Of a DNA stretch of 59,919 nt, positions 46,635 to 58,667 are shown piece after piece. The stretch lies in the IMG/VR virus record IMGVR_UViG_3300023703_000810; one strand, 5' to 3'. The stretch's first letter is position 1. Every line of letters starts with the position of its first letter. The notes beneath the pieces were generated by a model. It ran no database searches. It was given only the letters and a program-made list of their open reading frames with translations, and had not been told where the DNA came from. The DNA is from an uncultured virus (IMG/VR IMGVR_UViG_3300023703_000810). Its lineage: Duplodnaviria > Heunggongvirae > Uroviricota > Caudoviricetes. A program made the position numbers and the translations under genes.

Positions 46635-47527
46635 TGATACTAATTGATTACAGTCAGGTGGCGCTTAGCACCATCTTGACATTCCAACGAGAGTTGAAGG
46701 GTACTGAGTCTGAGGTTAAGAACCTTATTCGTCACGTAACTCTTTCAACGATCAAGTCATACAAAAAGAAGTATGGTAAAGAGTATGGAGAGATTGTAAT
46801 CTGTTGCGATGGTCGTAAGTACTGGCGCAAAGAATACTTTGAATTCTACAAAGCCTCTCGTAAAAAGAACCGTGATGCTTCTGATCTAGATTGGAAACTC
46901 ATCTTTGATACACTCACTGAGTTGCGTGAAGACATCGCCAAACATTTCCCATATCGAGTTATTCACGTTGATCGTGCTGAAGCCGATGATGTGATTGCTG
47001 TTATGACGAAGTGGGTTCAGACCAATCAGTTAGTCCAAGAAGGGCTTGTTGAAGAGTCTCAGAAGGTTCTGATTCTTTCTTCTGATAAAGACTTCAAACA
47101 ACTGCAACTCTATCCGAACGTGAACCAGTGGTCACCGATGCTCAAGAAGTACATCAATGCCACTAAGAAAGAGATCCAAGAGTTTATGATCGAGCATATC
47201 GTTAAGGGTGATGCTGGTGATGGTATCCCTAACATCTTGTCCAAAGACGATGTATTTGTTATTGGTGAGCGTCAGAAGCCAGTCTCTGCCAAACGTCTTG
47301 CTGAGTTCATTGAACTTGGGTACGATGCTTGTCGTAATGACGATGAACGCCGTAACTGGAAACGTAACTCTGTCCTTGTAGCATTCGATAACATTCCACC
47401 AGATGTGGATGAAGAGATCGTTGTAACATATCTAAATAACAAACCGACAGGTGATAAAATGTCGATCATGAGCTACTTGATCACGCATAAATGTCGTCTG
47501 TTGTTAGATGATCTGGAAGATTTTTAA
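46634..47527 (+). CDS. rnh: T4-type RNase H / 5'-3' exonuclease
   Basis: YWRK..F..YKASR, EADDVIA, SSDKDFKQL, GDAGDGIPN. Confidence 0.95.
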   Translation: MILIDYSQVALSTILTFQRELKGTESEVKNLIRHVTLSTIKSYKKKYGKEYGEIVICCDGRKYWRKEYFEFYKASRKKNRDASDLDWKLIFDTLTELREDIAKHFPYRVIHVDRAEADDVIAVMTKWVQTNQLVQEGLVEESQKVLILSSDKDFKQLQLYPNVNQWSPMLKKYINATKKEIQEFMIEHIVKGDAGDGIPNILSKDDVFVIGERQKPVSAKRLAEFIELGYDACRNDDERRNWKRNSVLVAFDNIPPDVDEEIVVTYLNNKPTGDKMSIMSYLITHKCRLLLDDLEDF

Positions 47528-48048
47528 AACTTACTTCTGAAGTGTTTAAGTTCACCTGATAGATAGCGAGGGTCTTGTTTAGTTATTCTACACATGTTAC
47601 CATCTCTATCCTTAGCTAGGAATGTTCCTTTAAGTGGACTTGGCACTTTCTGTTTGTATCTTGATCCCTTTGCTACACCTACAAGTTCACCTGATAGATA
47701 GCGAGGGTCGTTTTTACTAACTAGGAATTTGTTCCCACTAGAGTCTTTAACCGAAATCATACCTTTAGCGATTCCTACAAGTTCACCCGATAAGTATTTT
47801 GGGTCATCTTTACAAACGCTATATGTGATTCCATTAGAGTCTTTAACTGATATTTTACCTAGTCTTGCGTCGCTCATGAGTTTTATAGATTTCTTTGTGT
47901 GTGACCTACCATACATACCATTACAGTCGCCAAATAACTTTGGACCAATATTGGTGTATGGAAGTAATGGCTCTAGTTTAGAGTAGTCGGGAAACGTTGT
48001 TTTTAGAGATTCGAAGACTGGGTCTTCATTTGGTGTATAAGTATACAT
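47524..48048 (-). CDS. HEG-derived DNA-binding protein (NUMOD3 plus 3 repeats ending DP(K/R)YLSGEL), no visible nuclease domain
   Basis: NGMYGRSHTKKSIKLMS; three ~33-aa repeats. Confidence 0.65.
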   Translation of the reverse strand: MYTYTPNEDPVFESLKTTFPDYSKLEPLLPYTNIGPKLFGDCNGMYGRSHTKKSIKLMSDARLGKISVKDSNGITYSVCKDDPKYLSGELVGIAKGMISVKDSSGNKFLVSKNDPRYLSGELVGVAKGSRYKQKVPSPLKGTFLAKDRDGNMCRITKQDPRYLSGELKHFRSKF

Positions 48049-48768: not shown

Positions 48769-49196
48769 AACAAAAGTGGATAGAAGCATTTATGGACACA
48801 GCGGAGCGATTCGCCAAGTTGTCCAGTGCCAAGCGATTGCAGGTTGGTGCGGTAGTCGTAAAAGATGAACGCATCACTTCAATCGGCTACAATGGTACAC
48901 CAGCAGGTTGGGATAACAACTGTGAGTTCGAGTACGTGAACCCTCAGACAAAGGTTGCAGAGATTGTGACCAAGAAAGAAGTTATCCATGCAGAAGCCAA
49001 CGCCATCTCTAAGTTGGCAAAGTCTGCAGACTCTGGAGAAGGTGCTTCTATCTTTGTTACTCATGCTCCTTGTGTTGAGTGTGCCAAGCTAATCTATGGT
49101 GCTGGCATCAAGCATGTCTACTACCGCAACTCCTACCGCAATGAAGATGGGTTAAACTTTCTAGTGAAGTGTAACATCGAGACAGAAAAGTGTTGA
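48765..49196 (+). CDS. cd: dCMP deaminase
   Basis: VGAVVV, GYNG, HAEANA, PCVEC. Confidence 0.93.
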   Translation: MKQKWIEAFMDTAERFAKLSSAKRLQVGAVVVKDERITSIGYNGTPAGWDNNCEFEYVNPQTKVAEIVTKKEVIHAEANAISKLAKSADSGEGASIFVTHAPCVECAKLIYGAGIKHVYYRNSYRNEDGLNFLVKCNIETEKC

Positions 49197-49360
49197 CTTG
49201 CAAATCTACTTGATGTATACTCTTATCTTCGGTTGGGATGCCCTCCCAAAAATAAATTCAAAATACTTGACAAAAAGTTCAATCTGAGCTAAAATTTTGT
49301 CTAAATAGATCTACAGGTGGTTAAAAACTGCTTGTCTTCAATCAACTTTTAGGATATAAT
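49193..49360 (+). promoter_or_regulatory. Three tandem sigma70 promoters upstream of the leader ORF
   Basis: TTGACT-17-TATACT (49193), TTGACA-17-TAAAAT (49267), TTGTCT-17-TATAAT (49332); also CTAAATA at 49301. Confidence 0.7.
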
Positions 49361-49370
49361 TCTTTCTACT

Positions 49371-49502
49371 ATGAGACTCTCTTGTTCCAATATGCATAAA
49401 CAGCTACCGTTGAATAACGGATGGACAAGCACACGCCCATCATTTGTAGAAGGTTCTGGCTATGCGATTGAGGATACGAAGGGTTTTGGTAAGAAGAAGT
49501 AA
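49371..49502 (+). CDS. Putative attenuator leader peptide (43 aa, all 20 amino acids)
   Basis: MRLSCSNMHKQLPLNNGWTSTRPSFVEGSGYAIEDTKGFGKKK*; 3' end overlaps the antiterminator strand. Confidence 0.65.
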   Translation: MRLSCSNMHKQLPLNNGWTSTRPSFVEGSGYAIEDTKGFGKKK

Positions 49503-49557
49503 GAGAACTTAGTCTCTTTACCAAAACCCTCGAAGATGTGAATCTCGAGGGTTTTTT
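49480..49557 (+). terminator. Mutually exclusive antiterminator/terminator
   Basis: AGGGTTTTGGTAA(49480-92) pairs TTACCAAAACCCT(49518-30); AAAACCCTCGA(49523-33) pairs TCGAGGGTTTT(49545-55), ending in a T6 tract. Confidence 0.85.
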
Positions 49558-49598
49558 GCTTTATAGTCTACCACGATGTGGGGTCTTTAAAGAAGGTG

Positions 49599-49835
49599 TT
49601 GACAGTAAAGCACTTGTGCTGTATAATCAATGCTTAGTTAGTGTGAAGAACGATGAAGAAAGAAACCCTACTGTTAGTAAGGTCTTTCAGAAAGTTGTTG
49701 ACACTAACGCTGATGTGATGTAAGATTACGTCTTAGGTTGAGTTAGAAATTATTTTTGACTTGTCCTTAGAAACCCCACGAAAGTGAAGGTTACTAAAAA
49801 TAGGTGTTGACTTTATATCTTAGCTGATGTATAAT
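49599..49835 (+). promoter_or_regulatory. Three further tandem sigma70 promoters for the tRNA array
   Basis: TTGACA-17-TATAAT (49599), TTGACA-17-TAAGAT (49698), TTGACT-17-TATAAT (49807). Confidence 0.8.
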
Positions 49836-49852
49836 CAATACCTCGGATGCTC

Positions 49853-49885
49853 TGCTCTTTAGCGACATCTTTAGATCTTTAAAAA
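49853..49885 (+). promoter_or_regulatory. boxA-like antitermination elements
   Basis: TGCTCTTTAGCG and GATCTTTAAAAA versus rrn boxA TGCTCTTTAACA. Confidence 0.55.
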
Positions 49886-49903
49886 TCTGTACCAGTTTTT
49901 ATT

Positions 49904-49982
49904 GCGACTTAGGTTAGAAAGTCGGGGTAAGTGATTTGGCTAACGCCGATATCGACCGCCCTGTTAGTATTACCTAAGTCGT
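49904..49982 (+). ncRNA. Structured leader element
   Basis: GCGACTTAGGT/ACCTAAGTCGT closing helix. Confidence 0.45.
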
Positions 49983-49986
49983 ATGT

Positions 49987-50060
49987 TCCCGAGTGGTGTA
50001 ATGGTAGCACAATTGACTTTGACTCAATTAGCATAGGTTCGATACCTGTCTCGGGTGCCA
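49987..50060 (+). tRNA. tRNA-Gln(TTG)
   Basis: Cloverleaf, ATTGA-CTTTGAC-TCAAT, CCA. Confidence 0.9.
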
Positions 50061-50164
50061 AACAGAAATATACTCAAAGGCAAGCGCAAGCCGATGTAGC
50101 GGATTACAGCCTTTGGTTTCAGAGGTAGGCAGGTTCGACTCCTGCGGAGTATTTTTCTGTTTGG
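50058..50164 (+). ncRNA. tRNA-like element closed by a long helix starting at the upstream CCA
   Basis: CCAAACAGAAA.ATACTC/GAGTAT.TTTCTGTTTGG; T-arm GCAGG-TTCGACT-CCTGC. Confidence 0.55.
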
Positions 50165-50189
50165 TAAGTTTATTAACAAGGAGAGTAGC

Positions 50190-50213
50190 ATGAAACGTTC
50201 AGGTAAACGTTAG
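50190..50213 (+). other. Amber-terminated minigene MKRSGKR* followed by a hairpin
   Basis: AAGGAG RBS; GTGTCACTCAAGATC/GGTCTTGGGTTGGCAC hairpin starts at the TAG. Confidence 0.45.
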
Positions 50214-50276
50214 TGTCACTCAAGATCCCGTATTGGTCTTGGGTTGGCACGTAAAATCAAAATAATTACGATCAAC

Positions 50277-50352
50277 CCACCCTAGATGTTATTGGTAGCA
50301 TACTAGACTCTTAATCTACGAGGACTGAGTTCGAATCTCAGAGGGTGGACCA
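50277..50352 (+). tRNA. tRNA-Lys(CTT)
   Basis: Loop CTCTTAA; CCACCCT/AGGGTGG; CCA. Confidence 0.88.
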
Positions 50353-50356
50353 ATAC

Positions 50357-50433
50357 GGGTTTATAGTTTAACGGCTAAAACATCTGGCTTTTAACCAGTA
50401 AGACTCTCGGTTCGAATCCGAGTAGACCCACCA
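50357..50433 (+). tRNA. tRNA-Lys(TTT)
   Basis: CTGG-CTTTTAA-CCAG; CCA. Confidence 0.9.
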
Positions 50434-50526
50434 TATAAAAACATACTACTGTGTGTATTTGTGAATAATGAGTACATGAAGGTTTCGGGCGTGATACCTG
50501 CGGTTTGGTAGTGTGTTTTTATATGG
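50431..50526 (+). ncRNA. Long-helix spacer element starting at the tRNA CCA
   Basis: CCATATAAAAACATACTAC/GTAGTGTGTTTTTATATGG. Confidence 0.55.
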
Positions 50527-50531
50527 TTTAT

Positions 50532-50606
50532 GGAGTTGTTAGTTTAGTGGTAAAACCACGGGTTGTGATTCCGTTATCACGAGTTCGATTCTCGTACATC
50601 TCCCCA
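50532..50606 (+). tRNA. tRNA-His(GTG)
   Basis: G-1:C73; ACGGG-TTGTGAT-TCCGT. Confidence 0.88.
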
Positions 50607-50610
50607 ATTT

Positions 50611-50686
50611 GCCTGTGTAGCTCCAATGGTAGAGCAGTGGATTGAAAATCCATGTGTTAGTGGTTCGAGTCCACTCATAGGCACCA
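50611..50686 (+). tRNA. tRNA-Phe(GAA)
   Basis: GTGGA-TTGAAAA-TCCAT; CCA. Confidence 0.93.
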
Positions 50687-50694
50687 AAGTATTT

Positions 50695-50769
50695 CCTCTT
50701 GTAGCTCAATGGTAGAGCACTCGCTTGATAAGCGATAGACCTAAGGTTCGATTCCTTTCGAGAGGACCA
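50695..50769 (+). tRNA. tRNA-Ile(GAT)
   Basis: TCGC-TTGATAA-GCGA; CCA. Confidence 0.9.
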
Positions 50770-50775
50770 AATTAT

Positions 50776-50850
50776 GGCGCATTCATATAATGGCTATTAT
50801 CGTGGATTGTCTATCCATAGACGGGAGTTCGATTCTCCCATGCGTCGCCA
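50776..50850 (+). tRNA. tRNA-Asp(GTC)
   Basis: GTGGA-TTGTCTA-TCCAT; G73 CCA. Confidence 0.88.
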
Positions 50851-50855
50851 ATTTT

Positions 50856-50925
50856 AGGATGAGTTCTGCAATTAACTAGAACACCAAACTCTTAATTTGA
50901 CATGTTCGTCAAAATCATCCTGTTG
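50856..50925 (+). ncRNA. Helix-CNGCA family RNA copy 1 (Lys-CUU anticodon loop)
   Basis: AGGATGA/TCATCCT, GTTCTGCAA, 3' GTTG. Confidence 0.7.
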
Positions 50926-50932
50926 TTTTTAT

Positions 50933-51011
50933 TCCGAGAAACCCAAGCAAGGTGCAGGGGCTTGACTGTTAATCAATGGTTAGATGAGTTCGATTCTCAT
51001 ACTCGGAGCCA
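50933..51011 (+). tRNA. tRNA-Asn(GTT)
   Basis: TTGA-CTGTTAA-TCAA; G73 CCA. Confidence 0.85.
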
Positions 51012-51094
51012 GAGCAAATAGTAATCTTGTTTTGATGCATGGTTACTCAATGTTTGTTAGTTTCAATGGGTGCTATAGAAACTAACACCAATTT

Positions 51095-51169
51095 GGGGAC
51101 AGTAGTGGGCTACGGTTCTCCCTTGCAAGGAGGATGTCTAGAAGGATTCGATTTCCTCGGTCTCCACCA
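51095..51169 (+). tRNA. tRNA-Ala(TGC), atypical D and T arms
   Basis: TCTCC-CTTGCAA-GGAGG; G3:U70; A73 CCA. Confidence 0.7.
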
Positions 51170-51175
51170 AATTAC

Positions 51176-51281
51176 ACACTGCTGAGGTGGTGTTAGAAGT
51201 TCTGCAGGATGACTAGCATAAGGCTACCCGCCTGATGTTTCAAATACTCTGGGGCGGCAGGTTTCGAGTCCTGCGTAGTGT
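51176..51281 (+). ncRNA. tRNA-like RNA (acceptor-like helix plus T arm, no canonical D/anticodon arms)
   Basis: ACACTGC/GTAGTGT; GCAGG-TTTCGAGT-CCTGC. Confidence 0.45.
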
Positions 51282-51312
51282 GGTTTAATATAGAGTTTAC
51301 ATTCATCATCAA

Positions 51313-51394
51313 TTTTCATACAGGTACTATGGAGTACGAGGGGCTTTGAAACGTTCGGTAGGTGCGAGGTTCGATTCCCGCACTTGTGTGAAAA
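51313..51394 (+). ncRNA. Degenerate tRNA-like element with extended acceptor helix, no CCA
   Basis: TTTTCATACAGGT/ACTTGTGTGAAAA; T-loop GGTTCGATTCC. Confidence 0.45.
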
Positions 51395-51405
51395 TTAATG
51401 ATTAT

Positions 51406-51480
51406 GGAGCTATCGTCTATCGGTTAGGACACTGGGTTTTCAACCCAGTAAGAGGGGTTCAACTCCCCTATCGAGTACCA
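51406..51480 (+). pseudogene. tRNA-Glu(TTC) with unpaired acceptor stem
   Basis: D, anticodon and T arms intact, but GGAGCTA cannot pair with ATCGAGT. Confidence 0.7.
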
Positions 51481-51485
51481 ATTAT

Positions 51486-51561
51486 CTCTGTAAAGCGTTA
51501 TCAGGTTGCGTACACCGTTTGGGGCGGTGTGGTGAAGGTTCGAATCCTTCTACGGAGACCA
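51486..51561 (+). tRNA. tRNA-Pro(TGG)
   Basis: CACCG-TTTGGGG-CGGTG; C1:G72, A73. Confidence 0.88.
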
Positions 51562-51563
51562 AG

Positions 51564-51710
51564 AATTAGTCGGAGTAATTAACCGAAAAGTAAACAGTAG
51601 ACGATCCCGCCATCTCGGTCGTCTTTGCAGTGTATACTGCGTCAGGAAGCTCGCAGGGGTAACTTGAGAAATGCTGGGGTAAGAGTCCCAATTGATCGAT
51701 GTGCACTAAT
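51564..51710 (+). ncRNA. Unknown multi-hairpin RNA
   Basis: AATTAGT/ACTAATT closure; AGACGATC/GGTCGTCT, GCAGT/ACTGC, TGGG/CCCA hairpins. Confidence 0.45.
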
Positions 51711-51714
51711 TTAT

Positions 51715-51790
51715 GCCTCTGTAGTTCAACGGATTAGAATACGGTGCTACGAACGCTGAGACGGGAGTTCGATTCTCTCCAGAGGTACCA
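51715..51790 (+). tRNA. tRNA-Arg(ACG)
   Basis: CGGTG-CTACGAA-CGCTG; CCA. Confidence 0.9.
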
Positions 51791-51795
51791 GTTAT

Positions 51796-51869
51796 GCGTG
51801 GTTAGTTTAATGGTAAAATCAGACGTTGCCAACGTTTAGTTAAGAGTTCGATTCTCTTACCCCGCACCA
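51796..51869 (+). tRNA. tRNA-Gly(GCC)
   Basis: AGACG-TTGCCAA-CGTTT; CCA. Confidence 0.87.
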
Positions 51870-51874
51870 GTTTT

Positions 51875-51931
51875 AGGTTTCTTTCAGCAATTAAAATCTT
51901 TTTTGGAATAAAAGCAAAGCGAAACCTGTTG
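51875..51931 (+). ncRNA. Helix-CNGCA family RNA copy 2
   Basis: AGGTTTC/GAAACCT, TTTCAGCAA, CTTTT-TTGGAAT-AAAAG hairpin, 3' GTTG. Confidence 0.7.
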
Positions 51932-51937
51932 TATAAT

Positions 51938-52027
51938 GGAGATATGGTCGAGTCTGGTTTATGGCACTTGTCTAGAAAACAAGCAACCCGAAAGGGTTCG
52001 TGGGTTCAAATCCTACTATCTCCGCCA
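51938..52027 (+). tRNA. tRNA-Ser(AGA)
   Basis: CTTGT-CTAGAAA-ACAAG; long variable arm; G73. Confidence 0.88.
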
Positions 52028-52032
52028 AATAT

Positions 52033-52124
52033 GGAAAGTAATGCAGCTGCGTTGGTGCGGCGACGAGCCTTGAAAACTCGGTTCTCAGAAATGGGATGGG
52101 GTTCGACTCCTCTGCTTTCCGCCA
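52033..52124 (+). tRNA. tRNA-Ser(TGA)
   Basis: Loop CTTGAAA; long variable arm; G73. Confidence 0.87.
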
Positions 52125-52130
52125 AAATTT

Positions 52131-52189
52131 AGGATGCGTCCAGCAATTTTCCAAATTCAACTTGTAATTGAAAAATAAGCATCCTGTTG
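52131..52189 (+). ncRNA. Helix-CNGCA family RNA copy 3 (Thr-UGU anticodon loop)
   Basis: AGGATGC/GCATCCT; TTCAA-CTTGTAA-TTGAA. Confidence 0.72.
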
Positions 52190-52212
52190 TTTAACTTGAA
52201 ATGGAGTTTGAT

Positions 52213-52791
52213 ATGCCAAGTGTATTTTTAACAAGTGATACGCACTTTGGTCACGCTGGTGTATGCAAATTCACTGAAGCTGACGGAGTTACGAAAATTC
52301 GACCATGGACTGATCCAGAAGAAATGGACGAAGCCATGGTCAAGATGTGGAATGAAACTGTCCGTCCAACGGATAAGGTTTACCACTTAGGTGACGTTGT
52401 CATTAATCGTAGAGCATTAAAGATTATGCATCGGTTAAACGGTGACAAGGTTTTGATTAAAGGTAATCACGACATCTTTAGATTAGAGGAATATACTCCA
52501 TTCTTTAGAGACATTCGTGGTTCACATGTGATGAATGGTATGATTTTAACTCATATCCCAGTCCATGAAAGCAACTTGTATCGCTTCGGTACTAACATCC
52601 ATGGTCATACTCATACAGCACGTGTGACAAAGATTGACCAGTATGGTGTTGAACGAATCGATCCTCGCTATCAATGTGTGTGCGTTGAACAAACAGACTT
52701 CAGACCCATCTTGTTTGAAGACGTAATCAAGCGCATTGAGAGAGAAGGTGGTACTGTCGGATTCAAAAACGGCAATGGACCAACGATGTAA
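52213..52791 (+). CDS. Calcineurin-like metallophosphoesterase
   Basis: SDTHFGH, HLGD, GNHD, THIP, HGHTH. Confidence 0.9.
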   Translation: MPSVFLTSDTHFGHAGVCKFTEADGVTKIRPWTDPEEMDEAMVKMWNETVRPTDKVYHLGDVVINRRALKIMHRLNGDKVLIKGNHDIFRLEEYTPFFRDIRGSHVMNGMILTHIPVHESNLYRFGTNIHGHTHTARVTKIDQYGVERIDPRYQCVCVEQTDFRPILFEDVIKRIEREGGTVGFKNGNGPTM

Positions 52792-52871
52792 TGTGTTGCA
52801 ACTAATCTCAGGGAGTCGTCGTTAGCCTGAGTTAAAATGACAAAAATCGTGGCCAACATTAGGAGAATGGA

Positions 52872-53000
52872 ATGCCAAAAGCAAAAGAAACATTAGAAAA
52901 AGCGTATGGCTCCATTCCGAAAGAAGTGGGGTTCTATTTTGAGATCCCAGTTCGTGGATTAAAGTACTATTGGTTAAGACTAATACGACGTATAAGATAA
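52872..53000 (+). CDS. 42-aa hypothetical protein (MPKAKETLEKAYGSIPKEVG...)
   Basis: AGGAG RBS; clean short ORF. Confidence 0.55.
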   Translation: MPKAKETLEKAYGSIPKEVGFYFEIPVRGLKYYWLRLIRRIR

Positions 53001-53003
53001 GAT

Positions 53004-53090
53004 GGAAGATGTGTTGCAAGGTGCGACAGGAGTTTGCTAAACTCTCGTTCAGAAATGGGCTGACAGGTTCGATTCCTGTATCTTCCGCCA
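53004..53090 (+). tRNA. tRNA-Ser(GCT)
   Basis: GGAGT-TTGCTAA-ACTCT; long variable arm. Confidence 0.87.
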
Positions 53091-53095
53091 GTTAT

Positions 53096-53182
53096 GCGAG
53101 TATGGTGAAATAGGTAGACGCAACAGACTTAAAATCTGTCGGACGCAAGTCCATGTCGGTTCGATTCCGACTACTCGCACCA
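53096..53182 (+). tRNA. tRNA-Leu(TAA)
   Basis: ACAGA-CTTAAAA-TCTGT; long variable arm. Confidence 0.93.
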
Positions 53183-53188
53183 AGTTAA

Positions 53189-53265
53189 GCGCCTATAGTT
53201 CAGCTGGATAGAACAGCGGTCTTCTACACCGCATGTCGGGGGTTCGAATCCCTCTGGGCGCACCA
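53189..53265 (+). tRNA. tRNA-Arg(TCT)
   Basis: GCGGT-CTTCTAC-ACCGC. Confidence 0.92.
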
Positions 53266-53270
53266 AGTTT

Positions 53271-53347
53271 GGGTCAGTAGCTTAGTGTCCCAAAGCAGGG
53301 TACTCATAATGCCTTGATCGTGGGTTAGAATCCCACCTGACCCACCA
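53271..53347 (+). tRNA. tRNA-Met/Ile2(CAT)
   Basis: GGGTA-CTCATAA-TGCCT; CCA. Confidence 0.85.
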
Positions 53348-53349
53348 AT

Positions 53350-53426
53350 GCGGATATGATGGAATTGGTATACGTGCCTGCCTCAAAAGCAGGATTCTGC
53401 GAGTTCGAGTCTCGCTATCCGCACCA
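53350..53426 (+). tRNA. tRNA-Leu(CAA), short variable arm
   Basis: CCTGC-CTCAAAA-GCAGG; Leu-type D loop; variable region only ~5 nt. Confidence 0.85.
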
Positions 53427-53433
53427 AATTTAT

Positions 53434-53511
53434 GTCTGGGTGCCCGAGTGGTCCAAGGGAACTGATTGCAAACCAGTAAAGCCGTGAGTTCAAATCTCAC
53501 CCCAGATTCCA
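53434..53511 (+). tRNA. tRNA-Cys(GCA)
   Basis: Loop TTGCAAA; U73 CCA. Confidence 0.88.
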
Positions 53512-53519
53512 GATAGTTG

Positions 53520-53548
53520 TTGACTTACAAGGTAAGTTGATGTATAAT
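53520..53548 (+). promoter_or_regulatory. sigma70 promoter, near-identical to 59273-59301
   Basis: TTGACTTACAAGGTAAGTTGATGTATAAT. Confidence 0.8.
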
Positions 53549-53556
53549 AGTTATAT

Positions 53557-53632
53557 GCACGATTCGTCTATCGGTTTAGGACACCAGCCTTTCACGTTGG
53601 TAAGACGGGTTCGATTCCCGTATCGTGTACCA
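53557..53632 (+). tRNA. tRNA-Glu(TTC)
   Basis: CCAGC-CTTTCAC-GTTGG. Confidence 0.92.
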
Positions 53633-53639
53633 AGTTTTT

Positions 53640-53725
53640 GGATGTGTAGGAAAATTGGTAACCCCAGGAGACTGTAAATCTTCCGCCTTATGGCATTGCT
53701 GGTTCGAGTCCAGCGGCATCCACCA
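53640..53725 (+). tRNA. tRNA-Tyr(GTA)
   Basis: GGAGA-CTGTAAA-TCTTC; variable arm. Confidence 0.9.
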
Positions 53726-53883
53726 GAATCGAGCAACGTCAGTTGCTTGTCAATCCAGACAAAGGGTCTGGCGTGTTAATTCGGGTTGCTTGCTAGCAAT
53801 CTTTTCGGTACTCACGATAGAAGTACGGCTAAAGTTCGTAATGCACAATATTCAAAATTACTAAATAGATGTAGGAGGAATAA

Positions 53884-54393
53884 ATGTTCTACTATCTCTA
53901 TGAAGTAAAAAACGATGTAAATGGTAAAATTTACGTCGGTGTTCATAAAACAACAGACATGAATGATGGCTATATGGGCTCTGGTTCTATTATCAAACGT
54001 GCCATCAAGAAATATGGAATTGATAATTTTACCAAAACAGTGTTAGAAACCTTTAACTCAGAAGAGGAAATGTTCCAAAGAGAAAAAGAGTTTGTAACCG
54101 ATGAGTTCTTAATGCGTGAAGATGTCTACAATTTAAGGCGTGGTGGTCTGGGTGGTTTTGATCATATCAATAAACTCGGTATCAACACCAAAAATATATG
54201 GTCAGATGAAGTCTCTGAACGTAGAGCCAAGACTAGAAAAGAGAAAAAGTTTCAACAAGGTTGTAATAATACTCAGTTCGGTTCTATGTGGATAACTGAT
54301 GGTTCTTCTAATAAGAAGATTCCAAAAGATTCAGAGATTCCATTTGGTTGGAGAAAGGGTGCCACATTGAGTGGACGCCCTAAGAAAGTTTAG
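53884..54393 (+). CDS. GIY-YIG (Seg-like) homing endonuclease in the tRNA array
   Basis: YLYEVKN..NGKIYVGVH...YMGSG...YNL; CTAAATA promoter upstream. Confidence 0.88.
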   Translation: MFYYLYEVKNDVNGKIYVGVHKTTDMNDGYMGSGSIIKRAIKKYGIDNFTKTVLETFNSEEEMFQREKEFVTDEFLMREDVYNLRRGGLGGFDHINKLGINTKNIWSDEVSERRAKTRKEKKFQQGCNNTQFGSMWITDGSSNKKIPKDSEIPFGWRKGATLSGRPKKV

Positions 54394-54467
54394 GTCTCAA
54401 AGTGTTCATGGACGCACGTAGCACTGTCACTGCTAAAGAAGGGGATCGTTACCCCTTGAGACCGCCA
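54393..54467 (+). tRNA. tRNA-Asp(GTC), atypical T loop
   Basis: TAGCA-CTGTCAC-TGCTA; GGTCTCA/TGAGACC; G73. Confidence 0.82.
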
Positions 54468-54470
54468 AGT

Positions 54471-54633
54471 TTTGTAAGTGTAGATGTTGAGAAAGCAGGA
54501 ACTCGAAATCCCTGCGAGTTGTCAGTGCGACAACCTTGTATCAACTATTACTACGTACCTCTAACCAGTCTGCAGCTTCAAAGAAAATACTGGTAAAATG
54601 ATGGAAAATGAGCGAGGTTCCATTACTTACAAA
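54471..54633 (+). ncRNA. Unknown ~160-nt structured RNA
   Basis: TTTGTAAGT/ACTTACAAA closure; GCAGG/CCTGC, GTTGTC/GACAAC, ACCAGT/ACTGGT helices. Confidence 0.5.
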
Positions 54634-54642
54634 TTTAATTCG

Positions 54643-54650
54643 TATAAATA
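54643..54650 (+). promoter_or_regulatory. T4-type late promoter directly before the suppressor tRNA
   Basis: TATAAATA. Confidence 0.7.
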
Positions 54651-54657
54651 CGATTAT

Positions 54658-54732
54658 GCGTTTGAAGCTGTATGGTATAGCAGGAGCCTCTAAAACTCTG
54701 GATAGCAGGTTCGATTCCTGTCAGACGCACCA
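54658..54732 (+). tRNA. Amber suppressor tRNA (CTA)
   Basis: GCGTTTG/CAGACGC acceptor, loop CTCTAAA, GCAGG-TTCGATT-CCTGT, A73 CCA. Confidence 0.85.
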
Positions 54733-54754
54733 CTTTTTATTGAAAGGAAAACAG

Positions 54755-54790
54755 ATGAAAGATTTCCGTTTGTAGATTCGCCCTCCGTAA
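54755..54790 (+). promoter_or_regulatory. Amber-containing leader minigene MKDFRL*IRPP*
   Basis: AAAGGA RBS; followed by anti-SD TTTCTTCTTG (54792-54801) complementary to CAAGGAGAAA (54828-37). Confidence 0.6.
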
Positions 54791-54841
54791 GTTTCTTCTT
54801 GGGCATTGAAAACAATTTTATAAAACACAAGGAGAAATTAA

Positions 54842-55222
54842 ATGAGTATCGAATTAAAAATTAAAGCAAAACACCTCGCTCTTGAGCCACAAGTTATTCG
54901 TCACGAAGAAGCTAAACTTAAGAAGCAAATCAAGTATCATCGTTCAAGCGACGAAGTATCAGCCTTTACTCTGGCACGAAAGCTAGATGAGTTGATTACC
55001 CATCGTCGTTGGAATGTCCGTAACGAATCCCGAGCAACTACCTTGGCAAGAGCGTTTCTTGCAGGTAAAATGTACTCTTCTGTTGAGAAGAGAAGCAAAG
55101 CGAATGATATGATGTTCTTTATGTACATCCTACCTCGCATACATGTTATGGTGACAAAGTACGGTAAAGGTGACCAACGCAAGATGACACGTGATGACAT
55201 CTGGCAATGGTCAAAGAAGTAA
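54842..55222 (+). CDS. Basic hypothetical protein (ESRATTLARAFLAGKMY..VE motif)
   Basis: AAGGAG RBS, 126-aa ORF. Confidence 0.8.
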   Translation: MSIELKIKAKHLALEPQVIRHEEAKLKKQIKYHRSSDEVSAFTLARKLDELITHRRWNVRNESRATTLARAFLAGKMYSSVEKRSKANDMMFFMYILPRIHVMVTKYGKGDQRKMTRDDIWQWSKK

Positions 55223-55227
55223 ATTAT

Positions 55228-55303
55228 TGCGGCGTGGAGAAATGGTATCTCATCAGTCTCATAAGCTGAAGATAGTAGGTTCGATTCCTACCGTTCGCAA
55301 CCA
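55228..55303 (+). tRNA. tRNA-Met(CAT), initiator-like
   Basis: TCAGT-CTCATAA-GCTGA; A11:U24-type D stem; AACCA end. Confidence 0.8.
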
Positions 55304-55309
55304 AGTTTT

Positions 55310-55371
55310 AGGATAGTTACAGCACTCAAAAAGCTAACTATGGTTGTCTAGCGACAAAAGCTATCCTGTTG
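55310..55371 (+). ncRNA. Helix-CNGCA family RNA copy 4
   Basis: AGGATAG/CTATCCT, TTACAGCA, 3' GTTG. Confidence 0.7.
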
Positions 55372-55383
55372 ATTAAGACCGTT

Positions 55384-55501
55384 AGAATCGTTACAGCAAT
55401 TAAAATAATCTTTCTGTAAAAAAGAGGGTCTGGGTTCGAGTCCCAGCGCAGAGTTGGTCTTCTGTGTGGTGTAATGGTAGCACGTAAAAAGCGATTCTGT
55501 T
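55384..55501 (+). ncRNA. Helix-CNGCA family RNA copy 5, with a circularly permuted tRNA-Tyr-like domain
   Basis: AGAATCG/CGATTCT; order anticodon arm, T arm, closed acceptor stem, D arm. Confidence 0.78.
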
Positions 55502-55505
55502 ATTT

Positions 55506-55579
55506 GCCCTTGTAGTATATTGGTATTACAGTTGCCTTGTAAGCATCAAAAGAAGGTTCGATTCCTTACTGGGGCACCA
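55506..55579 (+). tRNA. tRNA-Thr(TGT)
   Basis: Loop CTTGTAA; CCA. Confidence 0.85.
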
Positions 55580-55705
55580 TATTGAAATACATTCATCATT
55601 GATAGTAGACTTCGAGCAACTTGGTTAATAGTTGAGTCTCACTATGAAGCAGCCTAACCAGCGCGATGAAAAGACCCCTGACGTCGAGAGTGTGTTTCAA
55701 TATGG
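55577..55705 (+). ncRNA. Long-helix spacer element starting at the tRNA CCA
   Basis: CCATATTGAAATACATTC/GAGTGTGTTTCAATATGG. Confidence 0.55.
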
Positions 55706-55779
55706 TGATGTAGTTCAGTTGGTAGAACACCTCCTTCATACGGAGATTGTCGGGAGTTCAAGTCTCTCCATCACCACCA
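55704..55779 (+). tRNA. tRNA-Met(CAT)
   Basis: CTCC-TTCATAC-GGAG; CCA. Confidence 0.85.
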
Positions 55780-55836
55780 AAGCCTCGCCCTTACACATGG
55801 CGTATAATGAGATAAGTAGTGTGTAACGAATTTTAT

Positions 55837-55911
55837 GCCTCGTTAACTCAGCGGTAGAGTAGCTCCCTTACAAGGAGACGGTCGGCGGTTCAATCCCGTC
55901 ACGAGGTACCA
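55837..55911 (+). tRNA. tRNA-Val(TAC)
   Basis: CTCC-CTTACAA-GGAG; CCA. Confidence 0.88.
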
Positions 55912-55916
55912 GTTTT

Positions 55917-56028
55917 AGGATGTTTCCCGCAAATATTTTTAACTTTAAGCCAAACAGCAGGTTCGGTTCGATTCCGACTAGTAGTGTAATGGTAGCACAG
56001 CCGTCAAAAGTAAAAAAGCATCCTGTTG
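55917..56028 (+). ncRNA. Helix-CNGCA family RNA copy 6, with permuted T arm then D arm
   Basis: AGGATGT/GCATCCT; TCGG-TTCGATT-CCGA then GTGT-AATGGTA-GCAC. Confidence 0.75.
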
Positions 56029-56032
56029 ATTT

Positions 56033-56106
56033 CTCGGGTTAGTTTAGTGGTAAAACTCGTGGTTTGGGACCATGGGTCGGAAGTTCGATTCTTCCACCCG
56101 AGACCA
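56033..56106 (+). tRNA. tRNA-Pro(TGG)
   Basis: CGTGG-TTTGGGA-CCATG; C1:G72. Confidence 0.9.
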
Positions 56107-56160
56107 ATATTGAGATACGTGTTTTCCTAAGTAATAGCATGTGCTACAAAAGGTAATAAC

Positions 56161-56619
56161 ATGAGAAATGACATAGAACCAAGAAAAGAAGAAATTCTTG
56201 GTTGGATTGCAGAAGATAGATCAAAAGCTGAGATAGCTAAACTTCTTTGTTGTCGGGTTGGTACTCTTCAAAATGCCCTCTCTAGGATGGGTATTGAGTA
56301 TAACGGTAATAAAGGTAGTAGAGGTAGAAAATCAGACAAGAAATATAAATCTGCTGAGGTTTATATGACAGGAGATACCTATATCTCTAGTCATAGATTA
56401 AAATTAAAACTTATCAGAGACGGTGTTAAAGAACACCGTTGTGAAGTTTGTGGTACTACAGAATGGATGGGAAATCCTGTTCCAGTTGAATTGGATCATA
56501 TTGATGGTAATCGCTACAATAATGATCTAAGTAATCTGAGAATTATTTGTCCAAACTGTCATGCACAAACTGATACATATTCTGGTAAGAATGTAGGTAA
56601 GTATGGGGATGTGATGTAA
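56161..56619 (+). CDS. HNH homing endonuclease
   Basis: CEVC...ELDHIDGN..NN...NL..ICPNCH; 3' end overlaps tRNA-Leu. Confidence 0.9.
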   Translation: MRNDIEPRKEEILGWIAEDRSKAEIAKLLCCRVGTLQNALSRMGIEYNGNKGSRGRKSDKKYKSAEVYMTGDTYISSHRLKLKLIRDGVKEHRCEVCGTTEWMGNPVPVELDHIDGNRYNNDLSNLRIICPNCHAQTDTYSGKNVGKYGDVM

Positions 56620-56688
56620 TTGGTAGCCATGCGAGTCTTAGAAGCTCGTGCCTTGTGCGTGTCGGTTCGAGTCCGACTATCCCCACCA
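56605..56688 (+). tRNA. tRNA-Leu(TAG)
   Basis: CGAGT-CTTAGAA-GCTCG. Confidence 0.9.
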
Positions 56689-56693
56689 ATTAT

Positions 56694-56769
56694 TCTCCTA
56701 TAGCTCAGTTGGTAGAGCGTTTGACTGTTAATCAAAATGTCCGTGGTTCGAGCCCACGTAGGGGAGCCA
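56694..56769 (+). tRNA. tRNA-Asn(GTT)
   Basis: TTTGA-CTGTTAA-TCAAA; G73. Confidence 0.93.
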
Positions 56770-56777
56770 AGTTTAAT

Positions 56778-56853
56778 GCTGCTTTAGCTCATTTGGTAGA
56801 GCAACGCTCTAGTAAGGCGTGGGTGGTCAGTTCGAATCCGACAAGCAGCACCA
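56778..56853 (+). tRNA. tRNA-Thr(AGT)
   Basis: ACGCT-CTAGTAA-GGCGT; GCTGCTT/AAGCAGC. Confidence 0.9.
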
Positions 56854-56867
56854 GTTAGGAGATTTTT

Positions 56868-57035
56868 ATGAGTGACGGTGGTAAAGGCGACAAACGTCGT
56901 CCAGAAGATAAAGATCAATGGGACAACGGATACGATCGTATCTGGGGTAACAAAAAGAAAGTCGATGAGTCTGAAGACAAACCGACTAGAAATAATGAAG
57001 AGACCCAAGAAGTCTTGAAACTGAAAGATAACTAA
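56868..57035 (+). CDS. 55-aa conserved phage peptide (MSDGGKGDKRRP...YDRIWG)
   Basis: AGGAG RBS; TAATG-coupled to the next gene. Confidence 0.7.
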   Translation: MSDGGKGDKRRPEDKDQWDNGYDRIWGNKKKVDESEDKPTRNNEETQEVLKLKDN

Positions 57036-58507
57036 TGATTACTGTTGGTATCGGTAAGGCATATCATGACTGCAGTATTTGTGTTAATGTTGATGGTGTA
57101 GTTAAATATGCTAAATGGGAAAGACAAGTACAAGATAAACATGCTAAAGCCCCTGACTGGTGGTTTTGGCAAAAGCTATCTGATTGGAATATACCGTTCG
57201 ACCAGATTGATTTAATTGTAGAAACCGATGGCGGTGGTGTATCAAACTTTCATAAGATAACAAGACTACCATATGGTGGTAATACATCAATTCGAAAGAA
57301 TAAAAAACATTTTATACTTGATCATCATTTAGCTCATGTGTGGTCTATATCATCGTATAATAATGATAATGCTGTAGTCATTGATGGTAAAGGTTCTGGT
57401 GACCATACTGTTATGGTAAAGAATAATGATAACATAACAAGACTAAAGTGTAGTAATCCAGCGCATATTTTTGATAATATTGGTAAGATACTAAATCTTG
57501 GTTCTAAGCATACAGACTATGCTGGTAAAGTAATGGGGTTAATCCCATATGGAAAGCCAGTAAAAGAAGTTTTTGATTTACTAAAAAAAATTAGTTCGAA
57601 TAATTTATCTGATTGCTTAAAATGCGTAAATATAGGTACGAATTCTCCTCCAGACGAGAAATCTTGTTTTGATGATGATTGGATTAAACGTCTAAACGCA
57701 ATTTCAACTGTTAACGAAATTTGTTATGATTTTGTTAAGTTACAGTTTAGCTCTCTGGACAAATCTAAACCTGTTTATTATTCTGGCGGTGTCGCTTTGA
57801 ATGTTGACTGGAATCGAAGACTACTAGATGATGGTTACAACTTAATAGTTGAACCTGCTTCTTATGATGGTGGATTGTCTATTGGTTGTATGAGATATGC
57901 ATGCTACATGCTTAAAGTTGATCAGCCAGTGATTAAAGATTTTCCTTATATCCAAGATGATGAGGCTCCAGATTCCACTCCATCTATTTCAACGATTAAA
58001 AAAGTAGCTGAGATGCTCGCTAACGGTAAGATTGTAGGATGGTATCAGGGACATGGTGAACTTGGACCACGTGCTCTAGGTAATAGATCTATTCTAATGA
58101 ATCCAACGATCAAAGATGGTAAGGATATTTTGAATAGTAAAGTCAAACGTAGAGAATGGTTTAGACCTTTCGGTGCCAGCGTTAAGAAAGATAAAGCAAG
58201 TAAGTATTTTGATTTGGATGAAAATCCATACATGCTATTTACTGCGAATGTTATTGATAAGAACTTACCTGCAATAACTCACGTTGATGGCACTTGTCGT
58301 CACCAGACAGTTACTGTAGAATCAAACAGATTGTTCTATTCTCTGTTAGATGAGTTTGAATCATTAACAGGATTGCCAGTATTGTTGAATACCTCGTTGA
58401 ATCTAGGTGGTAAACCTATAGCTGGCAGAATACAAGATGCAATTGAATTGTTCAATACTACAGAGATGGATGCTCTTTGTGTTGGTGATACGTTGTATAT
58501 AAAATAA
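57035..58507 (+). CDS. NodU/CmcH-family O-carbamoyltransferase
   Basis: HDCS, DHHLAH, GKVMGL, GGVALN, ELGPRALGNRS, REWFRPF, LNTSLN. Confidence 0.93.
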   Translation: MITVGIGKAYHDCSICVNVDGVVKYAKWERQVQDKHAKAPDWWFWQKLSDWNIPFDQIDLIVETDGGGVSNFHKITRLPYGGNTSIRKNKKHFILDHHLAHVWSISSYNNDNAVVIDGKGSGDHTVMVKNNDNITRLKCSNPAHIFDNIGKILNLGSKHTDYAGKVMGLIPYGKPVKEVFDLLKKISSNNLSDCLKCVNIGTNSPPDEKSCFDDDWIKRLNAISTVNEICYDFVKLQFSSLDKSKPVYYSGGVALNVDWNRRLLDDGYNLIVEPASYDGGLSIGCMRYACYMLKVDQPVIKDFPYIQDDEAPDSTPSISTIKKVAEMLANGKIVGWYQGHGELGPRALGNRSILMNPTIKDGKDILNSKVKRREWFRPFGASVKKDKASKYFDLDENPYMLFTANVIDKNLPAITHVDGTCRHQTVTVESNRLFYSLLDEFESLTGLPVLLNTSLNLGGKPIAGRIQDAIELFNTTEMDALCVGDTLYIK

Positions 58508-58508
58508 T

Positions 58509-58585
58509 GACTCGGTAGCTCCAATTGGCAGAGCAGGGGATTCCAAATCCTCGTGTTGGGGGTTCGAATCCCTCTCGGGTCGCCA
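58509..58585 (+). tRNA. tRNA-Trp(CCA)
   Basis: GGGGA-TTCCAAA-TCCTC; G73. Confidence 0.9.
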
Positions 58586-58590
58586 TTTAT

Positions 58591-58667
58591 GCGGGTATAG
58601 TGTTTAACGGCTAGCACGTAAGTCTTCCAAACTCAAAGTTGGGGTTCGAATCCCCATACCCGCTCCA
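58591..58667 (+). tRNA. tRNA-Gly(TCC)
   Basis: Loop CTTCCAA; U73. Confidence 0.9.

Follow-up and report, generated by a model that had tools for sequence, protein, structure and literature searches.

A putative ribosome-operated attenuator with a leader peptide of all 20 amino acids at the head of a phage tRNA operon

The 59,919-nucleotide (nt) window analysed here belongs to an uncultured virus (IMG/VR record IMGVR_UViG_3300023703_000810) and carries, at the head of a large array of tRNA genes, a compact element made of a promoter, a short leader open reading frame (ORF), an intrinsic terminator (T) and an alternative helix (A) that shares a strand with that terminator. From comparative sequence evidence and modelled folds, we consider it likely that this element is a ribosome-operated transcription attenuator heading the phage tRNA operon, its leader being a near-minimal 'pangram' that covers the 20 amino acids, and that slow decoding by ribosomes probably leads the phage to produce more tRNA. 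An earlier note on this DNA had put forward the attenuator interpretation, which the comparative and thermodynamic evidence described below supports. Computation establishes the anatomy of the element, its conservation, its location ahead of the array, coding selection on the ORF, covariation in the helices, near-equal fold energies and a leader that is complete in composition. We infer that the ORF is translated in vivo, that transcription terminates at T, that ribosome position decides between A and T, and that this choice affects tRNA output.

Results

The leader promoter lies on the + strand at 49332-49360 (TTGTCT at 49332-37, a spacer of 17 nt and TATAAT at 49355-60). Its -10 hexamer ends 10 nt before the ATG at 49371, no Shine-Dalgarno motif is present there, and the predicted 5' leader is only 2-4 nt long. 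The leader ORF itself (49371-49502, + strand) has 43 codons, encodes MRLSCSNMHKQLPLNNGWTSTRPSFVEGSGYAIEDTKGFGKKK* and contains all 20 amino acids, so that the earlier description of a promoter followed by a nearly leaderless 43-codon ORF can be read directly from the sequence. The last ORF codons, K-G-F-G-K, form the 5' arm of helix A, AGGGTTTTGGTAA (49480-49492, + strand), which is near-identical to the 3' arm of the terminator and has its exact complement downstream in the helix A 3' arm, TTACCAAAACCCT (49518-49530, + strand). These 13 base pairs (bp) are extended by inner pairs, and helix A folded alone reaches -25.9 kcal/mol. The last 4 nt of its 3' arm (CCCT, 49527-30) are also the start of the terminator 5' arm. 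The intrinsic terminator T (49527-49557, + strand) reads CCCTCGA-A-GAT, a GTGA loop at 49538-41 and ATC-TCGAGGG, followed by T6 at 49552-57. Its GC-rich stem of 7 + 3 bp has one bulged A, a GNRA loop and a 3' arm at 49542-51, with a folding energy of -17.4 kcal/mol including flanking A-U pairs; a consensus scanner missed this terminator because of the bulged A. The 13-bp pairing overlapping the terminator 5' arm, as the earlier note had drawn it, is thus present in the sequence and folds as predicted. A further hairpin, P, occupies 49407-49420 on the + strand (CCGTT-GAAT-AACGG, codons Pro13-Gly17); it is conserved with covariation and does not pair with the A arm, and our guess is that it acts as an RNA polymerase pause or synchronising hairpin. 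Overall, the 199-nt leader folds with z = -5.4 relative to shuffled sequences, and no Rfam family matches 49300-49560 at E<=1.

Relatives were initially collected as 80 IMG/VR loci by using the neighbouring dCMP deaminase gene as an anchor, and the leader region could be aligned in 13 of them. A profile search found the element in 14 loci, together with a further copy that is truncated; in the genome of the window itself it occurs a single time. A DNA pattern made of the helix A 3' arm and the terminator returned 114 further stretches, and an nhmmer profile then finds the element in 110 loci in addition to the window. ORF extraction yields 71 distinct peptides, typically of 36-45 amino acids (aa). 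The length of the ORF is accordingly held at about 36-45 codons, and no relative keeps the terminator while lacking the ORF, which is found in all 110 elements. The earlier note had expected the peptide to drift while the element stays. This is borne out for the rare residues Cys, Gln, Tyr, Val and His, which relocate, but not for a conserved core, LPLxxGW..R..F..AIE.D.GFGK, which remains, partly because its codons form helices. Two relatives (L111 and L189) represent a divergent subtype with a 32-residue leader containing 18-19 different amino acids, and the leader of L111 is followed after only 7 nt by tRNA-Glu, not tRNA-Gln.

The predicted start of the transcript is conserved in kind. Promoters were scored as matches, out of 12, to the sigma-70 consensus. 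Among 68 relatives of typical length, 58 have a promoter scoring at least 9/12. The distance from the end of its -10 hexamer to the ATG is 6 nt in 27 of them, 7 nt in 16 and 10 nt in 15, the window being among the last; judging from the predicted promoter position, mRNAs with the 6- or 7-nt gap (43/68) would be truly leaderless. About ten relatives differ in having a leader of 20-30 nt that carries AAGGA.

All three helices, P, A and T, show compensatory changes, which agrees with the conservation of the hairpins that the earlier note had proposed as a check. The consensus fold of a 69-sequence alignment keeps the upper part of helix A and the terminator. In alignment columns, pair 161-191 of helix A is AU in 34 sequences and GC in 31; in helix T, pair 213-227 is UA in 41 and GC in 27, and pair 214-226 is AU in 25 and GC in 25; in helix P, pair 62-74 is AU in 43, GC in 17 and GU in 7, and pair 63-73 is CG in 37, UA in 17 and UG in 4. 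Taking P and the full helix A together, the share of paired cells is 86.7% and drops to 40-55% once the partners are slid, and the covariation score is 0.159 compared with 0.113 in shuffles, a value of 0.159 being reached by 0/500 shuffles. Lower A and outer T never vary, and these segments are uninformative, as they were required by the retrieval pattern. Three members to which this requirement did not apply are informative. The first is a relative found via the deaminase (L016), in which GGGTTTTGG becomes GGGTGGGAT and CCAAAACCC becomes ATCCTACCC, such that the helix is kept while the end of the peptide changes from GFGK to WDG. Another relative (L310) maintains the pairing through a G-U pair, and a third (L256) has one base deleted from each terminator arm.

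The two alternative folds are finely balanced. At the point of U-tract transcription, the energy of the A-form minus that of the T-form is 0.15 +/- 2.2 kcal/mol; the difference lies within 2 kcal/mol in 35/54 sequences, and A is the stabler form in 24. When folded without T, the 3' end of the ORF binds at least four of the first five nucleotides of the terminator 5' arm in 54/54, and when the ORF end is masked as if a ribosome stood on the stop codon, T forms in 54/59. As to spacing, the stop codon follows the core of the A 5' arm at 8-20 nt in the window and at 4-13 nt in the short forms, and the terminator begins 24 nt past the stop codon, where it would be clear of the ribosome. The 5'-end pairing seen in the window's minimum-free-energy fold is not evident in relatives with other N-terminal codons, as judged by eye on the alignment and not counted.

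The leader frame carries a coding signal. Read in the sense frame, 42% of single-nucleotide codon differences are synonymous; the five alternative frames give 7-26%. Leu and Pro columns that are fixed as amino acids are nevertheless encoded by 3-5 codons. These comparisons show the leader frame to be under coding selection and suggest that its translation is the conserved feature. We considered an antisense gene, as two antisense frames are often open (49/66 and 36/66), and rejected it on a synonymous share of 11-26% compared with the 42% of the sense frame. No Pfam or PHROG family was found for four members of the leader-peptide family, and a protein homology search returned only five small proteins, all unnamed or 'hypothetical'. 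One segment of the ORF stands apart: the CACGCCCA box (49432-49439, + strand), spanning Thr-Arg-Pro codons and keeping a constant spacing to the invariant TGG codon, shows almost no variation over 69 sequences, synonymous sites included. Its alignment columns C64, A65, C66, G67 and C70 are invariant and the Arg codon is CGC in 56/61. Near-invariance at synonymous sites points to a constraint at the nucleic-acid level, and we speculate that the box (CACGC) is a DNA- or RNA-level signal such as a polymerase pause.

A striking property of the leader is its completeness. All 20 amino acids occur in 55/71 distinct peptides. A further 14 peptides contain 19 and lack Val, Cys, Gln or Trp; a single peptide contains 18, and the remaining one was shortened by the ATG-only start rule. 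One member manages all 20 within 36 residues. The amino-acid completeness of the window's leader therefore extends across its relatives, against a background of 0.12-0.84% for protein windows of 36-45 aa. In this phage, all 20 are present in 0.6% of 43-residue windows of its proteins and in 2/435 short ORFs of the genome; taken alone, the completeness of the window's leader is unusual, not decisive, and it is the relatives that make the case. Among the 61 peptides of 34-46 aa, 48 contain all 20 amino acids, when only 0.5-4.2 of the 61 would be expected if core columns are kept and variable sites are redrawn, a null that used either the proteome composition or the family's own variable-site composition and treats related sequences as independent. 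At 70% identity, 16/19 clusters include an all-20 member.

Among the rare residues, Cys is present as one copy in 57/61 peptides, as none in four and never as two, and it spans seven alignment columns: 4-6, near the N terminus, in 32 peptides, 28, after the Trp, in 22, and 10, 13 and 24 once each. Tyr is present as one copy in 61/61, over four columns, and both His and Asp as one copy in 60/61. Cys, Gln, Tyr and Val shift position among relatives yet remain, usually in single copy. On a quick maximum-likelihood tree the minimum number of location changes is 9 for Cys, 5 for Gln and 9 for Tyr, counts that are rough minima, as the tree is short and includes the trait's own columns. From the alignment, these residues behave as if selection acted on their presence and not on their position.

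Completeness extends to isoacceptors. The 66 distinct ORFs all contain both Ser boxes and both Leu boxes, 56/66 contain both Arg boxes, and 60/66 contain ATA together with ATY. The window's leader has a cognate codon for 28/28 sense anticodons of its own array, whereas random 43-codon windows cover a mean of 18.9 anticodons (standard deviation 2.25, maximum 26) and 0/38,164 reach 28; 42/43 leader codons are readable by phage tRNAs. For 27 relatives with at least 10 distinct anticodons in 2.5 kb, counted by simple wobble rules, no anticodon is missed by the leader in 6, one is missed in 15, two are missed in 5 and four in 1.

At the level of codons, the picture is more modest than the 'pan-codon' property that had been proposed. 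A recount agrees with the earlier codon list and with 33 distinct codons among the first 37, a diversity far above the genomic background: when 39,280 random 37-codon windows are taken from the genome's ORFs, a fraction of 5e-5 attains it, with the choice of the 'first 37' being post hoc; over all 43 codons, the equal level is found in 0.9% of random windows. Given the peptide, the number of distinct codons exceeds the expectation from genome usage with z = +1.45. It hardly tops even synonymous use (z = +0.46), on which ground we rejected a strict pan-codon design in favour of amino-acid and isoacceptor coverage. The leader is thus better described as pan-amino-acid and pan-isoacceptor.

The tRNA array that follows (49987-58667, + strand) starts with tRNA-Gln(UUG). 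ARAGORN reports 30 tRNAs with default settings and 33 on the + strand with relaxed settings, and one further tRNA, at 55229-55299, is found by Rfam only; the earlier figure of 35 genes holds as a large and complete array, with a count of about 34 and not exactly 35. In the relaxed ARAGORN set, the array has 28 distinct sense anticodons, which between them serve all 20 amino acids, and a CUA tRNA in addition. This last tRNA (54658-54732), which ARAGORN labels 'Pyl', would read the amber stop codon and has the sole array anticodon without a leader codon. Two tRNA-like remnants, a T-arm-like GGTTCGACTCC hairpin after tRNA-Gln (50080-50150) and a partial Rfam tRNA match to model positions 10-63 (51415-51469), suggest decayed tRNA genes within the array.

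The element precedes tRNA genes in the relatives as well. A tRNA lies within 429 nt in 66/71 distinct downstream contexts of at least 150 nt each, the other five having 300 nt of sequence or less, and tRNA-Gln(UUG) comes first in 65/66. A gap to tRNA-Gln as short as 47-51 nt is seen in 28 contexts; no sigma-70-like site of at least 9/12 occurs in 27 of them, which would leave their first tRNAs reachable only through T. These short gaps (5018-5065 in L032, and the same place in L017, L149, L107, L089, L110 and L092) contain a small hairpin after the terminator, the stem of which covaries (GGG/CCC, GGC/GCC, AGC/GCT) around an invariant CATCGT loop, and an A/T box (TTCTTTAAAAATTT or CTTTTACAAT) with -10-like hexamers just before tRNA-Gln. 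Hairpin and box may mark a place of processing or of protein binding, or a -10-only promoter. The conserved TTTAAAAAT box before tRNA-Gln was considered as a phage-specific promoter class and rejected, its 9-mer occurring only 2 + 2 times in the 166.5-kb genome, too rarely for a general late-promoter motif; a local promoter may nevertheless lie there.

The window differs from these short-gap relatives in an insert of about 380 nt between T and the first tRNA, present only in the window and its close relatives (T-to-tRNA gaps of 376-429 nt). Within it, on the + strand, lie three promoters, at 49599-49627 (12/12, a perfect TTGACA-17-TATAAT), 49698-49726 (10/12) and 49807-49835 (11/12), which confirms the three downstream promoters of the earlier note. 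Two more precede the leader promoter on the same strand, at 49193-49221 (TTGACT-17-TATACT, 10/12) and 49267-49295 (TTGACA-17-TAAAAT, 11/12), and their transcripts would carry the leader ORF behind a 5' leader without a Shine-Dalgarno motif. Six sigma-70-consensus promoters, all on the + strand, are in this way packed into 640 nt (49193-49835), an unusual density. Where the window has its two extra promoters, four relatives (L032, L017, L035 and L030) have a hairpin ahead of the leader promoter (e.g., ATAACCCTAC...GTAAGGTTAT) that could provide insulation from upstream transcription.

The source is an uncultured T4-like lake phage whose genome is a single 166.5-kb contig. Searches of 49150-49990 by megablast and blastn against 50,697 GenBank phage records gave no DNA match, there is no cultured relative to draw on, and the flanking RNase H is 40-44% identical to proteins of T4-like cyanophage, Pelagibacter phage and Methylophilales phage. 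A 174-aa ORF (47524-48048, - strand), flanked by the RNase H gene and by the genes that precede the dCMP deaminase, contains a motif of about 35 residues repeated three times in tandem (...KDDPKYLSGELVGIAKG...), which may be a homing-endonuclease-type DNA-binding repeat.

Discussion

The mechanism that we envisage would begin with transcription starting at, or a few nucleotides from, the AUG, such that a 70S ribosome could load only on the nascent 5' end and would race the RNA polymerase. If decoding is fast, the ribosome would reach the last codons and the stop codon and cover the A 5' arm (49480-92), freeing the shared CCCT; T (49527-57) would then form and transcription would stop before tRNA-Gln. 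If the ribosome lags within roughly the first 30 codons, be it through a scarce, uncharged or cleaved tRNA or through failed ribosome loading, A would form first and sequester the terminator 5' arm, and the polymerase would enter the tRNA genes. With one codon for nearly every amino acid and with both Ser, Leu and Arg boxes represented, slow decoding by almost any tRNA would raise tRNA transcription, the outcome being a supply-on-demand loop.

Several observations weigh against this reading or restrict it. Most relatives were retrieved by a pattern requiring the A 3' arm and T, which makes the invariance of those segments a matter of construction; a second, independent pattern, built from two ORF boxes, listed 119 loci, among which at least five have the element and at least two are new, both of these keeping the pairing, and it contributed little by way of unbiased sampling. 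The sequences are related, so that counts are not independent, and the diversity of codons given the peptide lies close to even synonymous use. The sensing range is also incomplete: computed with a 12-nt ribosome leading edge on 57 peptides, the antiterminator is freed only by stalls in the first 27-34 codons, which hold 16-19 amino acids, and the residues found solely outside this range are Asp in 56/57 peptides, Glu in 39/57, Tyr in 15 and Phe in 11. The earlier idea that a stall at any codon before the stop allows read-through consequently stands for those first codons and fails for Asp, and often Glu, which are too near the stop; both lie in conserved columns whose nucleotides extend helix A, and they may be present for the sake of the RNA. 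No conserved anti-antiterminator was seen among the relatives, and untranslated transcripts, those from 49193 and 49267 included, would therefore read through by default. The mechanism would also depend on a host capable of translating leaderless mRNA. Three strong promoters after T and two before the leader promoter mean that the switch governs only part of the flux in the window, and we share the earlier caveat that it may only boost expression there; in the short-gap relatives, the A/T box may be a promoter without a -35 element. Finally, four freshwater metatranscriptome runs contain the stretch at 100% identity, as 7.6-kb contigs spanning everything; these show no starts, ends or strand and could stem from DNA carry-over, such that they are evidence neither way and provide no transcript map.

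Part of this evidence would suit an ordinary small-protein gene with its own promoter and terminator, whose product acts in trans on host translation or a defence system, while the array is driven by other promoters and its adjacency reflects synteny. Amino-acid-level purifying selection on the frame and the conserved core would be expected of such a gene, gene callers have called the ORF in public data (the five matches above), and five other promoters are near in the window. We nevertheless regard it as unlikely. A protein function leaves unexplained why single-copy rare residues relocate and why 48/61 peptides hold all 20 amino acids against the few expected; nor does it account for an ORF 3' end that mimics the terminator 3' arm and forms an isoenergetic alternative helix, for the altered peptide end of L016 that keeps the pairing, or for the 27 relatives in which no sigma-70-like promoter lies between T and tRNA-Gln. 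The peptide also has no match to a Pfam or PHROG family. The opposite emphasis, that the helices are a structured 5' leader serving tRNA-precursor processing or stability, or a small RNA released at T, with translation incidental, draws on the strong predicted structure, on three covarying helices, on a CACGC box invariant at synonymous sites and on the conserved small hairpin and A/U box after T. It seems to us very improbable in view of the clear coding signature of the sense frame, a start codon that in all members is either at the transcript 5' end or behind AAGGA, a stop codon that holds its place in helix A, and the lack of an Rfam family match.

A subtler alternative accepts the attenuator and changes only what it reads, namely general translation capacity (ribosomes, initiation factors, leaderless initiation or infection timing) and not single tRNAs, with completeness having no sensing role. 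Its geometry is identical to the one that we propose, leaderless initiation is conserved, any failed ribosome loading would give read-through where no anti-antiterminator exists, and Asp and Glu lie beyond the sensing range. For this alternative, the completeness kept through position turnover and the coverage of every sense anticodon of the array would both be unexplained coincidences, and we consider it improbable. An attenuator sensing the decoding of individual tRNAs remains our preferred reading. A more ambitious version of it, which we hold to be about evenly poised between right and wrong, is that the phage encodes a self-contained translation homeostat, in which the leaderless pangram samples nearly every tRNA once and any slow step switches the terminator off and raises transcription of the phage's own complete tRNA set. 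Slowing might come from starvation, from host tRNAs that decay once the host is shut off, or from anticodon nucleases of the host that cleave tRNAs.

The closest analogues are the leader-peptide attenuators of enterobacteria, trpL and hisL and the multivalent thrL and ilvL. As in the trpL/hisL type, a short promoter-proximal ORF precedes an antiterminator that shares a strand with an intrinsic terminator, the ORF end lies in the antiterminator 5' arm, and ribosome position would select the fold such that slow decoding leads to read-through. In contrast to that type, there are no runs of one regulatory codon and instead about one codon per amino acid and isoacceptor, the target is a set of tRNA genes in a phage, the mRNA is leaderless, and no conserved anti-antiterminator (1:2) is seen, the default without translation being probably ON. 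What would be new is ribosome-mediated attenuation without codon runs, acting on tRNA genes.

A leaderless parallel comes from mycobacteria, where leaderless polycysteine short ORFs are reported to be cysteine-responsive attenuators (10.1101/834739). There too, a polycistronic transcript opens with a leaderless short ORF, the decoding of which tunes downstream expression; the mycobacterial ORFs are described as responding to one amino acid, through consecutive Cys codons, in cysteine-related operons, whereas the phage leader has a single Cys and each amino acid about once, a tRNA array as target and an explicit terminator/antiterminator pair. The leader-ORF attenuator of vmlR in Bacillus subtilis is reported to respond to antibiotic-stalled ribosomes (PMC9226507) and is similar in that a short upstream ORF coupled to conditional termination senses a general translation defect. 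The vmlR system differs in its signal, drug-stalled ribosomes, in its output, a resistance factor, and in having no leader completeness. Phage tRNA sets have been proposed to serve codon compensation or to help phages evade host defences that cleave tRNAs (PMC10264068, PMC11555353). The sections available of these two studies concern the roles of phage tRNAs and not the control of their transcription, and no attenuator is described in them; they would explain why a phage facing depletion or cleavage of host tRNAs might increase its own supply.

In full-text literature searches, nothing relevant was returned on leader-peptide attenuators placed ahead of phage tRNA genes. To our knowledge, the control of phage tRNA genes is essentially undescribed, at a time of growing interest in why phages carry tRNAs. 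If the homeostat version is true, the phage would carry its own counter-measure against defences that target tRNAs, and no earlier attenuator is known to control tRNA genes. A leader peptide under selection to include each amino acid would represent a design principle new to attenuators, reporting overall decoding speed and not one metabolite, in a compact natural part of about 190 nt that would respond to translation stress. Its signature, rare residues present once each and moving between positions, could be used to search for similar sensors elsewhere.

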